Part shown: piece after piece, positions 7,981 through 42,295 of the stretch
Numbering within the stretch: the stretch's first letter is position 1
Layout: the number at the start of each line of letters is the position of its first letter
NCBI GenBank assembly: GCA_963704725.1
Contig: OY969934.1
Location: 3,008,001-3,072,000, forward strand
Length of the DNA: 64,000 nucleotides
Origin: an uncultured Actinomycetes bacterium
GTDB taxonomy: Bacteria > Actinomycetota > UBA4738 > HRBIN12
Direction of reading: 5' to 3'
Translations under genes and position numbers: made by a program
The notes under the pieces: generated by a model
The model's input: the letters and a program-made list of their open reading frames with translations, nothing else
The model's database searches: none
Told to the model about the DNA's origin: nothing

Positions 7981-8276
7981 TTGAGGAGGTTCACCTCGTC
8001 CACGTTGATCGTCTCGCGGTTGCGATAGATCAGGATCACGATCGCGAGCCCGATGCCCACCTCGGCGGCGGCCACGGCGATCACGAACAGCGCGAACACC
8101 TGCCCGGTGAGGTCGCCGAGCGCCTGGCTGAACGCGATGAGGTTGACGTTGACCGCGTTCAGCATCAGCTCGATCGACATGAGCACGAGCACGGCGTTGC
8201 GACGGGCCAGCACGCCGTACACGCCCGTGCCGAACAGGACGGCCGAGAACGTCAGCGGCAGGAAGAGACGGATCAC
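7974..8276 (-). CDS. nuoK: NADH-quinone oxidoreductase subunit K (second cluster)
   Basis: [21 protein letters not shown]; GTG overlaps nuoJ stop. Confidence 0.93.
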
Positions 8277-8773
8277 GTCCGGTCGTCCCTGCGCGAGAGC
8301 ACGATCGCGCCGATCAGGGCCGCGAGCAACAGGAACGAGATGACCTCGAACGGCAGCACGAAGTCGCTGAAGATCGACAGGCCGACGCTGGCCGCGCTGC
8401 CCCCGCTCGGATCGATCCGCGGGCCGTCCCACGGGAACGCTCCCTGGATCATGAAGATGAGGCCCGCCACGATCGCCAGGCCCACCAGGAACGCGACGCT
8501 CCGCCGCTGGTTGTCGAGCGCCTCCCGCCCGATCGGCGCCTTGGTCAGCATGAGCCCGAACAGGAACAGGATCACGATCGCGCCGACGTAGATCAGGATC
8601 TGCACCCACGCCACGAACTCCGCCGACAGCAACAGGTATACCCCCGCCACCATCGAGAGCGTCAGCACGAGATACAGCGCGGCATGCACCACGTTCCGCG
8701 CCGTCACCAGCCGGAACGCCGCAACGACCCCCACCAACCCCATCACGACGAACGCGTACTCCTGCCCGCTCAC
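8273..8773 (-). CDS. nuoJ: NADH-quinone oxidoreductase subunit J (second cluster)
   Basis: [30 protein letters not shown]. Confidence 0.93.
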
Positions 8774-9663
8774 GCCCCACCGGCCTTCTTCCGAGCCGCG
8801 ATCATCGCCGCCCGCTTCGCCGACCCCTCGGCCACCCGCCGGTCCTTCCCCTGCCCCAACTGCTCGGCGAGCACCCGCTCGTACGTCTCCTGATCCGGCT
8901 CCACCTCGGCGTGGGGAGCCGCAGCGGCCGCTGGTGGTCCCACCGCTGCTGGTGACGGAGCGTCCTGCGCGGGCGCGGTGGCGCCCGGAGCGACTGCGGG
9001 TGCCGGCGCCGAGGCTTGCGGTGGAACGGTCGGCGCAGGGGTGGTGGCGGAGGGCGACTGTGAGGCGGCTACGACCGCCGGTGCGGCCGCGGACGGTGGC
9101 GCCGCCGCCGAACCGGAGCCCGCAGCCGCCACCCCGGAGCCGTCGGCCGGACCTGTCTCGACAACCGCCCCCACCTCGAGAGCGGGAGGCGGGAGGACCG
9201 TGTACGTCCACTCCTCCAGCTTCTCCTTCTCGTGCGTGAGGAGGTCGATCTCGTACTCCGCGTACTCGAACTCGGGGCTCCAGAAGAGCGCGTCGAACGG
9301 GCACACCTCGACGCAGATGCCGCAGTACATGCAGAGCGCGTAGTCGATGGCGAACCGGTCGAGCACCTTGGCCGACCGGGCCTTGCCGCCCGAGGCCGGA
9401 TCGTGCGTCTCCTTGTGGGCGTCGATGTAGATGCACCAGTCCGGGCATTCGCGCGAGCACTTGTAGCAGACGGTGCAGTTGGCCTGCTTCAGCGCGATCA
9501 CGCCGCGGGTGCGGGGGGGCAGGTCCGGCTTGACCTCCGGGTACTGCTGGGTGATCGAGCGCCGGAGGGCGTGCTTCAGCGTGACGGCGAGACCCTTGAC
9601 CAGGCCGAGGCCCGTGCCCTGCACGTCGGGCGAGCTCAGCGTGTCCCTCTCTTCGATGGCCAC
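8770..9663 (-). CDS. nuoI: NADH-quinone oxidoreductase subunit I (second cluster) with Ala/Pro linker and C-terminal ~40-aa extra module
   Basis: [12 protein letters not shown] and [12 protein letters not shown]; GGAGG RBS before GTG 9663; ~130-aa C-terminal extension. Confidence 0.92.
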
Positions 9664-9671
9664 TCCGCCTC

Positions 9672-10679
9672 CTACACCGCGACCTTCACGACGCCCACGA
9701 CCAGCACCTGCAGCAGGGCCAGCGGGATCAGCGCGAGCCAGGACCCGCGCTGGAGCTGATCCTCGCGCATCCGGGGATAGGTCGCCCGCAGCCAGATCAC
9801 GAAGAACGACAGCGCGCCGATCTTCGCGGCCATCCACAGCGGGTCCGGGATGAACGCCAGGACCGGCGGCGCCTGGTACCCGCCCAGGTACAGCACCGAG
9901 GCCACGGCGGACAGGGCGACGATCCCGCCGTACTCGGCCAGCAGGAAGAACGCGAACTTCAGGCCGGTGTACTCGGTGAGGGCGCCGAAGATGATCTCGG
10001 AGTCGGCGACCGGCATGTCGAAGGGCGGGCGCGTGAGCTCGGCCAGCGCCGCGACGACGAAGATGGCGAACCCGATGGGCTGGGTGAGGACGAACCAGTA
10101 TCGCTGCTGGGCCTCGACGATCCCGATCATCGAGAGCGTCCCTGCCTGCATCACCACGGAGGCCGCCGCGAGCACGATCGGCAGCTCGTACGCGATCAGC
10201 TGCGCGGCGGCGCGGAGCGCCCCGATCAGGGAGAACTTGTTGGCCGAGGCCCATCCCGCCATCAGCACGCCGATCACGTTCACCGACGTGATCGCGATGA
10301 CGAAGAAGATCCCGACGTCCAGGTTCAGGATGAAGATCTCGTTCGAGAACGGGATCACCACGAACAGCACGATGTACGGAATCAGGGCGACCGCCGGCGC
10401 CAGCGAGAAGACCCAGTGGTCGGCCGCCGCCGGGACGATGTCCTCCTTCTGCACGAACTTCACGCCGTCGGCCACGAGCTGGGCCCACCCGTGGAACCGC
10501 CCCGCGTACATCGGTCCCAGGCGAGCCTGCATGTGCGCCAGCACCTTGTGCTCCATGTAGCCGACGCCGAGCGGGGCCACGAGGAAGAACACGAGGACGA
10601 TCGCGGCCTTGACGACGAGCACCATCCAGTACGCGCCGAGCCACTGGTCGACGAAGCTCACCCCGGCCTCCCCGATCAC
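9672..10679 (-). CDS. nuoH: NADH-quinone oxidoreductase subunit H (second cluster)
   Basis: [36 protein letters not shown]; alternative GTG start at 10661. Confidence 0.95.
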
Positions 10680-11197
10680 TCCTCCTCTTCCTCCTCGCCC
10701 TCCGCGGCGCCCGGCCAGGGCTTGACCACGCGGGACATCAGGGGGAAGTCCTTGCGGAGCGGGTGGCCCTCGAAGGGCTCGGGCAGGAGCAGGCGGACCG
10801 GTTGGGGATGACCCTCGAACGTGACGCCGAACATCTCCATCGTCTCGCGCTCGTGCCAGTTGGCGGCGGGGTAGATGTCCGAGATCGTGGGGCAGACGAG
10901 ATCGTCCGCCGGCAGCCGCACCTTGACGCGGACGTTGTGGTGCAGGCGCGTCGAGAAGACGTGGGTCACGATGTCCATCCCCGCGTCGCCGCGGTCGACG
11001 CCGGAGGTGAAGTCGCAGTAGTCGCAGGCGAACTCGGGCTCGTCGCGTAGGAAGGTCATCAGCTCCCGGTACCGCGAGACGCTCACCGTCACGACCGGGT
11101 GGCCGAACGAGTCCTCGAAGGCGAGGACGTCGTCGCCGAACTGCGCCCGGAGGCGCGTCTCGACCTCAGGAGGTGGCAGCGGGCGTGAGCTTGCCAC
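10676..11197 (-). CDS. nuoC: NADH-quinone oxidoreductase subunit C (second cluster)
   Basis: [29 protein letters not shown]; no NuoD domain fused. Confidence 0.92.
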
Positions 11198-11678
11198 TCC
11201 ACTTCTCCCTGATGTCTTCCTTCTCGATCTTCTCCTGCAGCCGGATGATGCCCTGGAGCAGCGCCTCCGGCCGGGGCGGGCAGCCCGGGACGTACACGTC
11301 GACCGGGATGATCTGGTCGATGCCCTTCAGGACCGAGTACGAGTCCCAGTACGGGCCGCCGCAGTTGGCGCAGGAGCCCATCGAGATCACGTACTTGGGC
11401 TCCGGCATCTGGTCGTACAGGCGCTTGATCACCGGCGCCATCTTGTCGGTGGGCGTGCCGGCCACGACCAGCAGGTCCGCCTGGCGCGGGCCGTGCGCGA
11501 ACGGGATGACTCCGAATCGGATGAAGTCGTGCTTGGAGGTCGAGGCCGCGATGAACTCGATCGAGCAGCAGGCCAGCCCGAAGTTGAACACCCACAGCGA
11601 GTACTTGCGGCCCCAGTTCAGGAGGAACTTGACCGGCTGGATCTGCGCGAGCGGCGTCTTCTCGGTGATCAGACCCAT
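11166..11678 (-). CDS. nuoB: NADH-quinone oxidoreductase subunit B (second cluster)
   Basis: [27 protein letters not shown] (N2 ligands). Confidence 0.95.
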
Positions 11679-12034
11679 CGCAGGACCCCCTTGCGCCACG
11701 CGTACAGGAGCCCGATGCCCAAGATGCCGATGAAGATCGCCATCTCGACCACCGCCTGGTACCCCAGGGGCTCGAAGATGCCGGCCCACGGGAACAGGAA
11801 CACCGACTCCACGTCGAAGATCACGAACAGGAACCCGAACACGTAGTACCGAACCTGGCTCTGGGACCAGCCCTCGCCGACCGGGTCGATCCCGCATTCG
11901 TAGGTCGTCAGCTTCTCGGGCAGCTGACGACGGGGTGCGATCAGCCGCGCGGCCCCGAAGGCGACGGCAACGAGCCCGACGCCAGCGACCAGGACCGCGA
12001 GGACGACCCCGTACGACTCGTAGTAGGTCCCCAC
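11669..12034 (-). CDS. nuoA: NADH-quinone oxidoreductase subunit A (second cluster)
   Basis: [15 protein letters not shown]; GTG 12034 preferred over ATG 12076 because a promoter and Rex-like box lie between them. Confidence 0.9.
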
Positions 12035-12036
12035 GC

Positions 12037-12072
12037 TTGTGAACGGTTTCCCGAGCAGCGCGGATTCTAGCA
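12037..12072 (-). promoter_or_regulatory. Extended -10 promoter (TGcTAGAAT) plus degenerate Rex box for second nuo operon
   Basis: 12064-12072 reverse complement tgctagaat; TTGTGAACGGTTTCCCGA at 12037-12054 (2 mismatches to TTGTGAA-N4-TTCACAA). Confidence 0.6.
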
Positions 12073-12082
12073 ACATCGCCTC

Positions 12083-18910: not shown

Positions 18911-18911
<1 letters not shown>

Positions 18912-19408
18912 TACCGGCCCTCCCCCGTGGCCGGCGCCGTCCCCAGCGGGAGCGGCGGCTCCAGGAGCTGCTCCTTGTCGAGGACGGCCTCCTCGCGCGA
19001 CAGGAAGCTCATCTCGTACGCGCTCGTCAGCGTGAGCGCGCGCGTGGGGCACGCCTCGACGCACAGGCCGCACATGATGCAGCGCAGGTAGTTGATCTGG
19101 TAGTCCTTGGCGTACCGCTCCCCCGGGCTCGTCGGGCTCTCCGGGTCGTTGTCGGCGCCCTCCACCCAGATCGCGTCCGCCGGACACGCGTACGCGCAGA
19201 GCTCGCACCCGATGCACTTCTCCAGCCCGTTCTCGTGCCGGTTGAGGCGGTGGCGGCCGATATGGCTCCGCGGCGGCGGGGGCACGATCTCACGCGGGTA
19301 CTCCTCGGTGACGTCGCGGCGGAAGATCTGCTTGAAGACCGTGCCCATGCCCTTGGCGATGGCCGTCACAGCGCTGCCCAGGTCGACGCGCGGACGCTCC
19401 TCGGTCAC
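18911..19408 (-). CDS. nuoI: NADH-quinone oxidoreductase subunit I
   Basis: [12 protein letters not shown] and [12 protein letters not shown]; no long C-terminal tail. Confidence 0.95.
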
Positions 19409-39438: not shown

Positions 39439-39837
39439 ATGCCGTTCACGAAGACCGAGGTGGACGTCCACACCGACTACGTGGTCGAGGCCGTGGACCC
39501 GTCGTGGCTGGCCAAGGGCGTGAAGTCGCCCAAGCACCTCATGCTCGACCCCGACAACTGCATCCTGTGCCGCGCGTGCGAGGACGTCTGCCCCTGGAAC
39601 TGCATCTACATGATGTCCACGGGCATCGTCCGGGACGCGGCGGACGACGCCGTGGAGGCGGAGATCGACCAGGCCTACTCGGTGTTCGTCGTCGACGACA
39701 ACGCCTGCACGCGGTGCTCGGTGTGCGTGGACCGATGCCCCACCGACACGCTGTACTATGCGCGGCTGCCCGAGGCCTCGGGCGGGCAGCGCACGATGGC
39801 GGCCGTTCCCGAGTCGCAACGGGCCGAGGCCGAGTAG
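39439..39837 (+). CDS. 2x[4Fe-4S] dicluster ferredoxin
   Basis: [12 protein letters not shown] and [12 protein letters not shown]. Confidence 0.92.
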
Positions 39838-39863
39838 CGGCCGGGACAAGGAGAAGGAGTCGG

Positions 39864-40634
39864 GTGAAGCTCAAGCCGCCCTCGCCCAGCGAGGTGCTGG
39901 ACCGGGTCCGCGAGACCGAGGCCTGGAAGTCGATCTTCCGGCCCGGCTCGATCTTCCGCAAGGGCTACAAGGACACGTCGCGCGACCGTGCGCTCGCGAC
40001 GATGAACAACGTCCTGTACCACCTGCACCCGGTCAAGATGAAGCGGCACGGGCTGAAGCTGACCTACACGTTCTGCCTGGGCGGCCTGTCCTTCTTCCTG
40101 TTCATCCTGCTCACGGTCACGGGCATCTTCCTCATGTTCTTCTACCGGCCGGCTGCCGAGCTCGGCGCCGCGCAGGCCTACTCGGACATGCAGAACATCC
40201 GGACGTCGGTCTTCTTCGGCGACCTGGTACGCAACCTGCATCGGTGGGGAGCGCACCTCATGGTGCTCAGCGTCACGCTGCACATGGCCCGCGTGTTCTA
40301 CACCGGGTCGTACAAGCCGCCTCGGGAGTTCAACTGGGTGGTCGGGGTCGTGCTCCTGTTCCTCACGCTCGGCCTCTCGTTCACCGGCTACCTGCTCCCG
40401 TGGGACCAGCTCGCGATCTGGGCCGTCACCGTGGGGACCTCGCTCGCCGGCTACTCCCCCCTCATCGCCAAGCAGGCGAACTTCCTTCTGCTGGGCGGGG
40501 TGGTGGTGGGACCGGACACGCTCTTACGGTGGTACGTCTTGCACGTGTTGGCCTTACCGTTCGTCCTGGTGATCTTCCTCGCCGTGCACTTCTGGAGGAT
40601 CCGCAAGGACGGCGGCATCTCGGGACCGCTGTAA
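39864..40634 (+). CDS. petB: Cytochrome b N-terminal part (cytochrome b6-like)
   Basis: [40 protein letters not shown]; AAGGAG RBS. Confidence 0.92.
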
Positions 40635-40643
40635 GAGGGGGAC

Positions 40644-41561
40644 ATGGCTCGCGAAGACACGCCGCTGGACCAGGAGACCTTCGACCGGGTCCTGGCCGAG
40701 GAGCTGGGCAAGGGCACCGACCGACGCGTGGCGGAGGGGCGGGCTCGGTCGGCTGCGGTTCGGGCGTTGAAGGCTAAGGAAGGTGGCGGCTCTCCCACAG
40801 CCGCTCCGGCCGCCGCAACGCCGGCTCCGACCGCGCCGGCAGCCGGAGATGGTGGCGCGGCTTCGGGCGGCGCGGAGTCGCCGGCTCCTGCGGCGGCCTC
40901 CGCTCCGGTGGGCCCACCCACGCCCGTACCGGCGGCGGTCGCTCCGGCGGCGGCTGCGGCTGCTCCGGCGCCCGTCGCTGCAGGCGGAGCAACCGCCACG
41001 ATCGCGCCGGCTCGGCAGGCGCCGGCGCCGACGGGGAACGTGCCGGAGGCGAAGAAGGGGGCGCAGGAGAAGCACCGGCTCCTGGCCTTGGTGCCGCCGG
41101 AGGGGATCCAGCGGGTCGAGCGGGAGCAGGGGGACCGGATCAACGTGTGGCCCCACCTGCTGATCGAGGAGTTCGTGGCGATGTTGCTCGTGCTCGTCGC
41201 GCTCGTGATCTTCTCGACGTTCATCAACGCGCCGCTGCGCGAGCTGGCCAACCCCAACCTGACGCCGAACCCGTCGAAGGCGCCCTGGTACTTCCTGGGG
41301 CTCCAGGAGCTGCTGCGCTACTTCCACCCCATGATCGCGGGGGTGCTGTTCGCTCCGACCCTGGTGCTGCTCGCGCTGGCCGTCGTGCCGTATCTCGACC
41401 GCAACCCCAGCACGCGCCCGGGTGATCGCAAGATCGCGATCACGCTGTTCACGATGCTGATGATGTTCGGCGCGACGCTGACGATCATCGGGTCGTTCTT
41501 CCGCGGCACCGGCTACAACTGGGTGTGGCCGTGGGCGCAGGGGGTGTTCTTCGAGCTGTGA
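40644..41561 (+). CDS. petD: Cytochrome b C-terminal part (subunit IV-like) with N-terminal ~40-aa module and Ala/Pro linker
   Basis: [28 protein letters not shown] (PEWY equivalent), PYLDRNP. Confidence 0.88.
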
Positions 41562-42295
41562 CCGGCGTCCTGGCCATCTCGAGCGGCACCGTCGCGGCGA
41601 TCGTCGTGATCGTGATCTTGGACCTGTTCGCCATCCTCTTCGGGCTGTCCTTCGTCCGCGCCCGCCGCGAGCAGCGCGCCGCCGAGGCCGCGGCCACCGC
41701 GGCCGCGCTGGGACGACCCGCCCCCAAGGCGGCGAAGCCGACGAGCCGGCGCGAGTTCTTCCGGAGGTCGCTCGTGGCGTCCCTCCTGATCTACGGGGCG
41801 CAGTTCGGCGGGGCGACGCTCGCGTTCCTGTGGCCGAGCCTGAAGGGCGGGTTCGGCTCCGTGATCAACGCCGGCAAGGTCGCCGACATCAAGTCGGAGA
41901 TCGACAGCTCGCACCAGCCCTTCTACTCGGGCATCGGACGCTTCTACATCGTCGAGTACGCCGGGCGGCCGAGCGGCGACGTCGACTACGAGGCGGAGGG
42001 ACTCTCGGTCCAGGGCGTCATGCCGCTGTACCAGCGGTGCGTCCACCTGGGCTGCCGGGTCCCGTACTGCGAGCAGTCGCAGTGGTTCGAGTGTCCCTGC
42101 CACGGATCGAAGTACAACACCGCCGGGGAGTACAAGCTCGGGCCGGCGCCCCGGGGCATGGACCGCTTCCACGTCGAGGTCACCTCGGCCGGCGACGTCA
42201 TGGTCGACACGTCGGAGGTCGTCCTCGGCCCGCCGCGCGGGACCGACACGCTCCACCGTCCCCAGGCCGGCCCCTTCTGCGTGGCGCCGGGATGA
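41558..42295 (+). CDS. petC: Rieske 2Fe-2S subunit
   Basis: CVHLGC and CPCHGSKY; SRREFF Tat motif after an N-terminal TM. Confidence 0.93.

Follow-up and report, generated by a model that had tools for sequence, protein, structure and literature searches.

An uncatalogued, tethered hairpin module on respiratory proteins of Actinomycetota: a candidate docking tag

Two copies of a tethered module

The window analysed here is a stretch of 64 000 nucleotides from an uncultured Actinomycetes bacterium (assembly GCA_963704725.1, contig OY969934.1, positions 3,008,001 to 3,072,000 of the forward strand). The element in question is a module of about 40 residues that is encoded twice in it, at the end of NuoI2, a subunit of a complex-I-like enzyme, and at the beginning of subunit IV of a split cytochrome b complex. 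The original prediction, made from the sequence alone, held that the module follows an Ala/Pro linker on NuoI2, precedes one on subunit IV, and shares 26 of 40 residues between the two proteins in spite of many synonymous differences. The features concerned, in window coordinates, are as follows.

8770-9663, minus strand: nuoI2 gene, 297 amino acids (aa), GTG start at 9663 behind GGAGG
9175-9663, minus strand: NuoI2 core, two CxxCxxCxxxCP motifs; Fer4 families (Pfam), NuoI models below their cut-offs
8896-9174, minus strand: flexible Ala/Pro-rich linker of NuoI2, 93 aa
8776-8895, minus strand: module copy 1, the C-terminal 40 residues of NuoI2, profile match E 5e-29
40644-41561, plus strand: subunit IV gene, 305 aa
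40668-40787, plus strand: module copy 2, N-terminus of cytochrome b subunit IV, BLASTP match to the NuoI2 copy
40788-41069, plus strand: Ala/Pro-rich linker of subunit IV, 94 aa
41070-41561, plus strand: subunit IV (PetD-like) membrane core, PF00032, 35.6 bits

All of these claims were borne out. The layout of subunit IV is the reverse of that of NuoI2, with the module first, then the linker and then the membrane core. BLASTP aligned the two modules without gaps (26/40 identical, 33/40 positive, E 6e-17), and different codons were used at 13 of the 26 identical residues. Between the copies dS was 0.98, dN 0.31 and dN/dS 0.32, calculated by the Nei-Gojobori method with our own script. The copies are old paralogues under purifying selection and not a recent conversion tract.

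NuoI2 was identified by its two 4Fe-4S motifs and by the position of its gene between nuoH and nuoJ. As it scored 91.4 bits with TIGR01971, below the cut-off of 113, it is a divergent NuoI. Subunit IV exceeded the PF00032 cut-off of 20.7 bits and is encoded directly after the split cytochrome b gene; the cyanobacterial equivalog TIGR01156 was not reached (20 vs 127 bits).

Anatomy and predicted fold

The consensus of the module is D-Q-E-T-(Y/F)-x-R-(V/L)-(L/I)-A-E, four optional residues, and K-G-x-x-x-R-V-A-x-(G/A)-R-A-K-A-A-x-x-x-A. The Gly of the turn is invariant, as are three Ala residues spaced i, i+4, i+7 on helix 2 (A25, A29 and A32 in the numbering of the NuoI2 module), and one Lys is nearly so. 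Ser or Thr is often found in the turn without being invariant, some copies having GKPER or GKGER. AlphaFold2, run with an alignment, predicted a helix at residues 5-17, a turn and a second helix at residues 22-42 with a mean pLDDT of 90.5, so the helix-turn-helix shape proposed for the module stands as a prediction. An acidic first helix (about -3) is followed by a basic second one (about +6), and the NuoI2 module has a pI of 9.8. A natural protein of three modules (P0152), run without an alignment, gave a pLDDT of 62.6 and a pTM of 0.26, too poor to judge how modules pack.

All linkers are 55-131 residues long and 52-61% Ala plus Pro. Identity among orthologues was 67-83% in the modules as against 27-43% in the linkers. 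The NuoI2 linker measured 62-93 aa (32% Ala, 20% Pro) in 14 distinct orthologues, with a mean identity of 27% compared with 67% for the module, and the subunit IV linker measured 55-98 aa (40% Ala, 21% Pro) in 22 distinct orthologues. These data indicate that the module is a real, autonomously conserved and position-independent domain, N-terminal on subunit IV and C-terminal on NuoI.

Host proteins

Hosts were surveyed by reading open reading frames in 20 distant loci and by a Pfam census of the 145 best representatives. NuoI carries one to four modules in tandem at its C-terminus; in NuoI of the Nitriliruptoria type (n = 118) there were three modules in 115 proteins and four in 3, and a three-module NuoI of the long variant was found in the unpublished genome G181. 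In one protein, P0219, a DUF4234 membrane domain is fused before NuoI2, and in P0212 a single frame runs from the NuoI2 tail and module on into NuoJ2. NuoC bears the module on a C-terminal extension, in an operon that continues with nuoD, and the module is therefore not specific to the NuoEFG-less complex. Besides the N-terminus of subunit IV, hosts include membrane-anchored cupredoxins in both orientations (signal peptide, cupredoxin, transmembrane helix and modules; or module, linker, transmembrane helix and cupredoxin), one soluble ferredoxin of the FdxA_Actino type with two modules (104.5 bits), a protein with a weak DUF6941 match, and anchor-only proteins consisting of anchor, linker and module. 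Proteins of three or four modules and nothing else also exist.

In the census, Fer4/NuoI was assigned in 11 representatives, cupredoxin in 4, Complex1_30kDa (NuoC) in 3 and Cytochrom_B_C (subunit IV) in 2, with single cases of Oxidored_q3 (NuoJ, in a fused NuoI-NuoJ frame), DUF4234 fused before NuoI, and FixP_N. Domains of other pathways were not found among the 145, bar weak matches to GpA_nuclease (2) and Filo_VP35 (1, E 7.6e-4), which were taken as chance matches. The expectation that the hosts would be respiratory or redox enzymes thus holds for those that can be named; approximately 120 representatives have no recognisable host domain.

The module is cytoplasmic wherever topology can be deduced, whether N- or C-terminal. 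Known structures place NuoI, NuoC and the N-terminus of PetD on the cytoplasmic side, and in single-pass hosts the orientation follows from positive-inside residues and the position of the signal peptide. As all hosts lie at or near the membrane, and helix 2 is net positive with its nearly invariant Lys and frequent Arg/Lys, the basic Ala-rich helix might bind anionic lipid head groups, polyphosphate or nucleic acid and so anchor or orient the tails. This we consider improbable. Conservation of the acidic helix 1, of the Gly in the turn and of the Ala residues A25, A29 and A32 points to a folded hairpin whose surface is specific. The module lacks large hydrophobic residues that could insert into a membrane, and proteins already embedded there need no 90-residue tether to reach it.

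A third copy and the anchor-only family

Only two copies had been foreseen, but the genome holds three. When the entire 3.45-Mb genome was searched with a profile of the two window copies (E up to 10), the third was found at G000:C1:3360926-3361048 (host gene L002 1501-2114, minus strand), at a distance of 312 kb past the copy on subunit IV, and no further one. Its host, a protein of approximately 200 aa, crosses the membrane once, with a short peptide on the outside and, after the single transmembrane helix, an Ala/Pro linker of about 110 residues that leads to the C-terminal module; as Arg-rich residues follow the transmembrane helix, the C-terminus is predicted to lie inside the cell. A search with the anchor part retrieved only its own family of 495 proteins, all unnamed. 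The module was carried by 92 of 97 further anchor homologues, and the remaining 5 were cut or frame-shifted in the linker.

The anchor-only gene was seen to change frame within the Ala/Pro linker, leaving the module out of frame, in L007, L010/L077, L060, P0406, P0408, P0415, P0418 and P0429; these changes could be assembly errors or real slippage. Immediately upstream of the anchor-only gene is a tRNA-Thr(CGT) gene in 5 of the 6 loci tested and, in the window's own genome, a histidine kinase gene.

tRNA-Thr(CGT) genes: L005 932-1008; L011 2173-2247; L019 2156-2232; L022 892-968; L071 3374-3448

In 13 of the 15 loci compared the anchor-only gene is directly upstream of a metalloprotease-like gene, with tilS, hpt and ftsH (assigned by eye) behind it. 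This neighbourhood, together with the frequent Ser/Thr in the turn, would suit an assembly, quality-control or regulatory tag, recognised by a chaperone, a protease (FtsH) or a kinase that would jointly control the biogenesis or turnover of respiratory subunits. The adjacency may nevertheless be historical; the protease-tilS-hpt-ftsH cluster is widespread in actinobacteria. The Ser/Thr of the turn is replaced in some copies, as described above, and tandem arrays of three to four modules and module-only proteins would be odd for a degradation or targeting tag, so that we hold such a tag to be quite unlikely. A phosphorylation loop as a universal function was rejected because the turn Ser/Thr is not invariant.

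Distribution

The module was found in 40 of 41 relatives, mostly as two to three copies each, and the single negative genome is 87% complete; the absence from relatives that would have spoken against a conserved domain was thus not encountered. Across the phylum, a 28-row profile was run against 301 evenly drawn Actinomycetota genomes, unpublished ones included, and 105 were positive. Carriage was complete or nearly so in five larger families (f1 16/16, f9 20/20, f14 18/21, f15 12/12 and f18 20/21), and in many other families of the sample it was not found. At E <= 1e-3, 4001 database proteins matched the long form and 1839 the short form, and the module formed 354 clusters at 50% identity among 1.84 billion representatives. 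The window's own order is represented by metagenome-assembled genomes (MAGs) only, 80 of 80 named records reading 'Actinomycetota/Actinomycetes bacterium'. The short form was found in Nitriliruptor-labelled MAGs and in the named Egicoccus sp. AB-alg6-2. Carriers are some soil and saline actinobacteria.

It could be argued that the module has no function and represents low-complexity or chance resemblance, or a recent conversion artefact, given that the adjoining linkers are of low complexity and some weak Pfam matches on the tails are spurious. The E value between the window copies, the use of other codons at half of the identical residues, conservation in 105 of the 301 sampled genomes and the confident fold prediction make this scarcely credible.

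Within the same sample, the ferredoxin that heads the operon of subunit IV was found in 123 genomes and the module in 105, with both in 95, the module only in 10 and the ferredoxin only in 28. The module is therefore nested in lineages with the ferredoxin-b6 operon, which account for 95 of 105 module-positive genomes, as against 10 positives among 178 operon-negative genomes.

Relationships among the copies

In a maximum likelihood tree of 28 modules, lineage labels needed 5 changes, the minimum for six labels, and host labels needed 11. Forcing the three subunit IV modules into one clade cost 49 log-likelihood units (p-AU 0.0004), the group having been chosen after the tree was seen. A four-residue deletion is common to the modules on NuoI, NuoC, subunit IV and the DUF6941-like host in families f15, f18 and f53. 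These data indicate that modules cluster by lineage and not by host. As subunit IV has the N-terminal module in all three groups, copies in one genome would have been replaced together or have evolved together; recent conversion is argued against by the saturated dS in this genome. In both cases the copies of a given cell stay alike, as one would predict if they shared a ligand or bound one another, and the clustering by lineage, including the shared deletion, suggests that the copies in one cell are functionally coupled.

Operon contexts

The genes surrounding the two hosts in the window, and the canonical NuoI, are listed below.

8273-8773, minus strand: nuoJ2, GTG start overlapping the nuoI2 stop (GTGA)
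9672-10679, minus strand: nuoH2
10676-11197, minus strand: nuoC2
11166-11678, minus strand: nuoB2
11669-12076, minus strand: nuoA2
18911-19408, minus strand: canonical NuoI, encoded in the complete nuo operon and lacking both linker and module (start taken from the original prediction)
39439-39837, plus strand: 2x[4Fe-4S] ferredoxin, first gene of the ferredoxin / cytochrome b6 / subunit IV / Rieske operon
39864-40634, plus strand: split cytochrome b (b6-like), start approximate
41525-42295, plus strand: Rieske iron-sulfur protein

The canonical NuoI had been said to lack the module, and the reading frame ending at 18911 indeed has no tail. The operon of NuoI2 runs nuoA2-B2-C2-H2-I2-J2 onwards, with none of nuoD, E, F or G between C2 and H2, and the same order, likewise without nuoD-G, was present in 21 of 21 related loci with enough flank. 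A second nuoD homologue (Complex1_49kDa) lies outside the window at G000:C1:403892-404626, far from both nuo operons, and probably supplies nuo2 with its quinone-site subunit. The complex had been described as lacking NuoDEFG, which is correct for the operon and not for the genome; an operon without nuoE, nuoF and nuoG, with nuoD encoded elsewhere, is the known actinomycete (Streptomyces-type) nuo2, nuoA2-N2 without nuoEFG and with nuoD2 elsewhere.

An acidic protein is encoded between nuoC and nuoD at L042 1014-2063 (minus strand), with a unit of about 60 residues of the type ...GSGPDGW..K.T...V.HT.DS...W..A..WF.D...A.AAGF.HWDP repeated twice. No Pfam match was found for it, and in P0256 the acidic repeat protein is fused to NuoC behind the module.

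The order ferredoxin, b6, subunit IV and Rieske was kept in all related loci, including distant ones with 39-49% ferredoxin identity, and none of the loci examined, not even the distant L038 and L041, had subunit IV without the ferredoxin gene. Both in the window (39439-42295) and in the 123 ferredoxin-positive genomes of the 301 sampled, the Rieske/b6 operon always begins with this ferredoxin, which has a conserved C-terminal tail. This suggests that the ferredoxin is a subunit of the b6-type complex in many Actinomycetota.

These contexts bear on a further explanation, in which the module would not self-associate and would recruit one soluble enzyme or carrier, in the manner of the peripheral subunit-binding domain (PSBD), keeping that partner near the membrane complexes. 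Candidates are an electron-input module for the NuoEFG-less complex, the acidic ferredoxin of the operon, or a dehydrogenase. The architecture is that of a PSBD, a two-helix domain of about 40 aa between or after Ala/Pro linkers; the basic module (pI 9.8, helix 2 about +6) could pair with the ferredoxin at 39439-39837 (pI 4.4, charge -12), whose gene occurs together with that of subunit IV in each locus examined; and the nuo2 operon has no electron-input module of its own. Against this, there are cupredoxins with an extracellular redox domain that carry modules on their cytoplasmic tails, and a NuoC encoded in one operon with nuoD that carries the module as well. The module-bearing ferredoxin fits recruitment of the carrier better than binding of ferredoxin by the module, and no candidate partner was identified. 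Recruitment of a single soluble partner is regarded as rather doubtful.

The module as a docking tag

The properties described above are those of a tethered interaction domain, since a folded, conserved unit is held on a long, variable tether at either terminus or in tandem arrays, since it is attached to electron-transfer carriers, bare anchors and bare arrays, and since it co-varies within genomes. Our preferred reading, to which a probability of roughly 0.45 is assigned, is that the module acts as a docking tag, or sticker on a spacer, with all copies in one cell binding one common target. The domain, of approximately 40 residues, would fold on its own, with a Gly-containing turn joining an acidic helix to a basic, Ala-striped one. 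Electron-transport proteins would present it in the cytoplasm as the tip of flexible Ala/Pro-rich tethers of 55-130 residues, and the target of every copy would be either the other copies or one shared partner. The NuoEFG-less complex-I-like enzyme and the ferredoxin-containing Rieske/cytochrome b6 complex may in this way be held in one neighbourhood at the cytoplasmic face of the membrane, together with anchored cupredoxins, the FdxA-type ferredoxin and anchor-only proteins. We infer both the protein-protein docking role and the co-localisation effect. The interpretation offered in the original prediction, a domain that self-associates or recruits a shared partner, is thus supported in part.

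As to the target, association of modules with one another is put forward tentatively and a common partner with slightly greater reserve. The slight lean to the former reflects the ferredoxin that itself carries modules and the module-only arrays, which agree a little better with a homotypic network. A three-chain complex prediction (the ferredoxin with two modules), run without controls, unlike the calibration of the tool, gave no answer, with a score of 0.00 in both runs. It is possible, if unlikely, that multivalent stickers and spacers form a dynamic, two-dimensional respiratory patch on the cytoplasmic face of the membrane; it would take in the NuoI tails, which bear up to four modules each, along with dimers of subunit IV, the anchored cupredoxins and anchor-only proteins, cross-linkers made of modules alone, and the module-bearing ferredoxin.

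Several findings weigh against the docking tag. There is little distinctive in the shape of a 40-residue hairpin of two helices, and the basic second helix could bind polyanions instead of protein. Many of the representatives without a recognisable host domain are metagenome fragments, and the impression that hosts are respiratory only rests on the nameable minority of the 145. Related genomes are not independent, and the co-distribution counts therefore overstate the link between module and operon. The third host of this genome adjoins the protease-tilS-hpt-ftsH cluster and not respiratory genes. Finally, clustering by lineage could stem from repeated domain replacement or gene conversion with no shared ligand.

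A parallel tail motif, and implications

In the operon-positive, module-negative lineages f24, f32, f38 and f42, subunit IV has at its start a different motif, of the T-E-I-P-E-H-L-L-K-R-S type, which is often present twice and likewise borne on an Ala/Pro arm. The same motif heads a membrane-anchored monohaem cytochrome c encoded beside the operon and occurs on a few other proteins. It was noted at the following loci.

TEIPEHLLKRS-type motif: L165 1389-1607; L166 1923-2105; L167 1236-1511; L180 1492-2313
TEIPEHLLKRS-type motif: L181 745-1797; L182 730-1929; L183; L179; L185

No relation between this motif and the module was found by hhalign. Respiratory subunits thus seem to have acquired common cytoplasmic tail motifs on more than one occasion, and the IPEHLLKRS-type motif may play in other lineages the role that is proposed here for the module.

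How bacterial respiratory complexes and soluble carriers are kept in proximity is an open question, to which the known answers are rigid supercomplexes or free diffusion. One uncatalogued domain that is carried by complex I subunits, a b6-type complex, copper proteins and a ferredoxin, and that co-varies in each lineage, is the genetic signature expected of a common docking system for the whole electron-transport chain. If this is correct, a respiratory patch would organise the chain without rigid supercomplex contacts. Direct tests are within reach, as the domain is tiny, the tails can be deleted and a named Egicoccus strain is a carrier; cultured Nitriliruptor and Egicoccus strains exist. 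The module also gives a handle on the electron donor of nuo2. Annotation is corrected as well, as thousands of labels such as 'hypothetical', 'IF-2', 'DedD', 'RodZ' and 'GpA nuclease' rest on module tails.

Comparison with known families and systems

The original prediction had recognised no named family, and this was upheld by searches of Pfam, NCBIfam, PDB sequences and profiles of PSBD and SHOCT. The module was absent from Pfam (E <= 10) and NCBIfam. A search of PDB sequences with the 28-row profile gave 6 chains at E 0.035-1.2, all short chance stretches, and Foldseek of the module model against the PDB gave 0 matches at E <= 0.001 (best E 3.6), which is uninformative for a 44-residue hairpin. 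No usable match was found in the ESM Atlas with the four-module protein P0127 as query.

The PSBD of 2-oxoacid dehydrogenase E2 chains docks other enzymes to the core, and resembles the module in having 35-40 residues, two helices and flexible Ala/Pro-rich linkers, as judged from the AlphaFold2 hairpin and the linker composition. The hosts differ, being E2 acyltransferases for the PSBD and NuoI, NuoC, subunit IV, cupredoxin and FdxA for the module. Comparison profiles for PSBD and SHOCT were built from this genome and its relatives. Membership of E3_binding (PF02817) was rejected (hhalign probability 0.07%, no Pfam match at E <= 10), and the PF02817 model found three true PSBDs in the genome, none of them modules. 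SHOCT (PF09851) is likewise a short terminal helix-Gly-helix element after a linker, but it occurs on many bacterial, often membrane, proteins and is not tied to respiration, whereas the module's hosts are respiratory. Membership was rejected here also, with hhalign probabilities of 0.6% and 0.2% and scores below the 27-bit cut-off. Short-variant tails gave weak partial matches of 15.5-16.6 bits and the long variant none, 8 columns of the LAExxxKG type aligned, and in the genome the SHOCT model found its own three sites and none at the modules.

With GpA_nuclease (PF20454), three-module tails sum to 23.8-24.8 bits (cut-off 22.5) although no single stretch is significant; the match covers only profile positions 235-269 of 294, and the window copies are unmatched. 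The precomputed GpA_nuclease labels on NuoI tails (P0128, P0275 and many more) thus appear to be summed chance matches and an annotation artefact. A Pup-like tag was dismissed by eye only, there being no similarity and the ends differing.

Among comparable systems, the docking domains of PKS/NRPS enzymes are small helical elements at C- and N-termini that bring subunits together, as outlined in PMC9113145. Those domains are complementary head/tail pairs, whereas here one module is found at either end and in tandem, and the likeness is an analogy only. In actinobacterial respiration, CoxG of Mo-CO dehydrogenase bridges membrane and cytoplasm by a flexible linker, according to PMC12202499; that system shuttles quinone via a lipid-binding domain, in contrast to the 40-residue hairpin on many hosts found here. 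The window operon is itself like the Streptomyces-type nuo2, with the order A2-B2-C2-H2-I2-J2, no D/E/F/G and a second nuoD elsewhere. Literature searches, covering listings and the openings of abstracts, found no tethered module on NuoI2, and we know of no description of one on the NuoI2 of nuo2. The nuo2 operon as such is already known.

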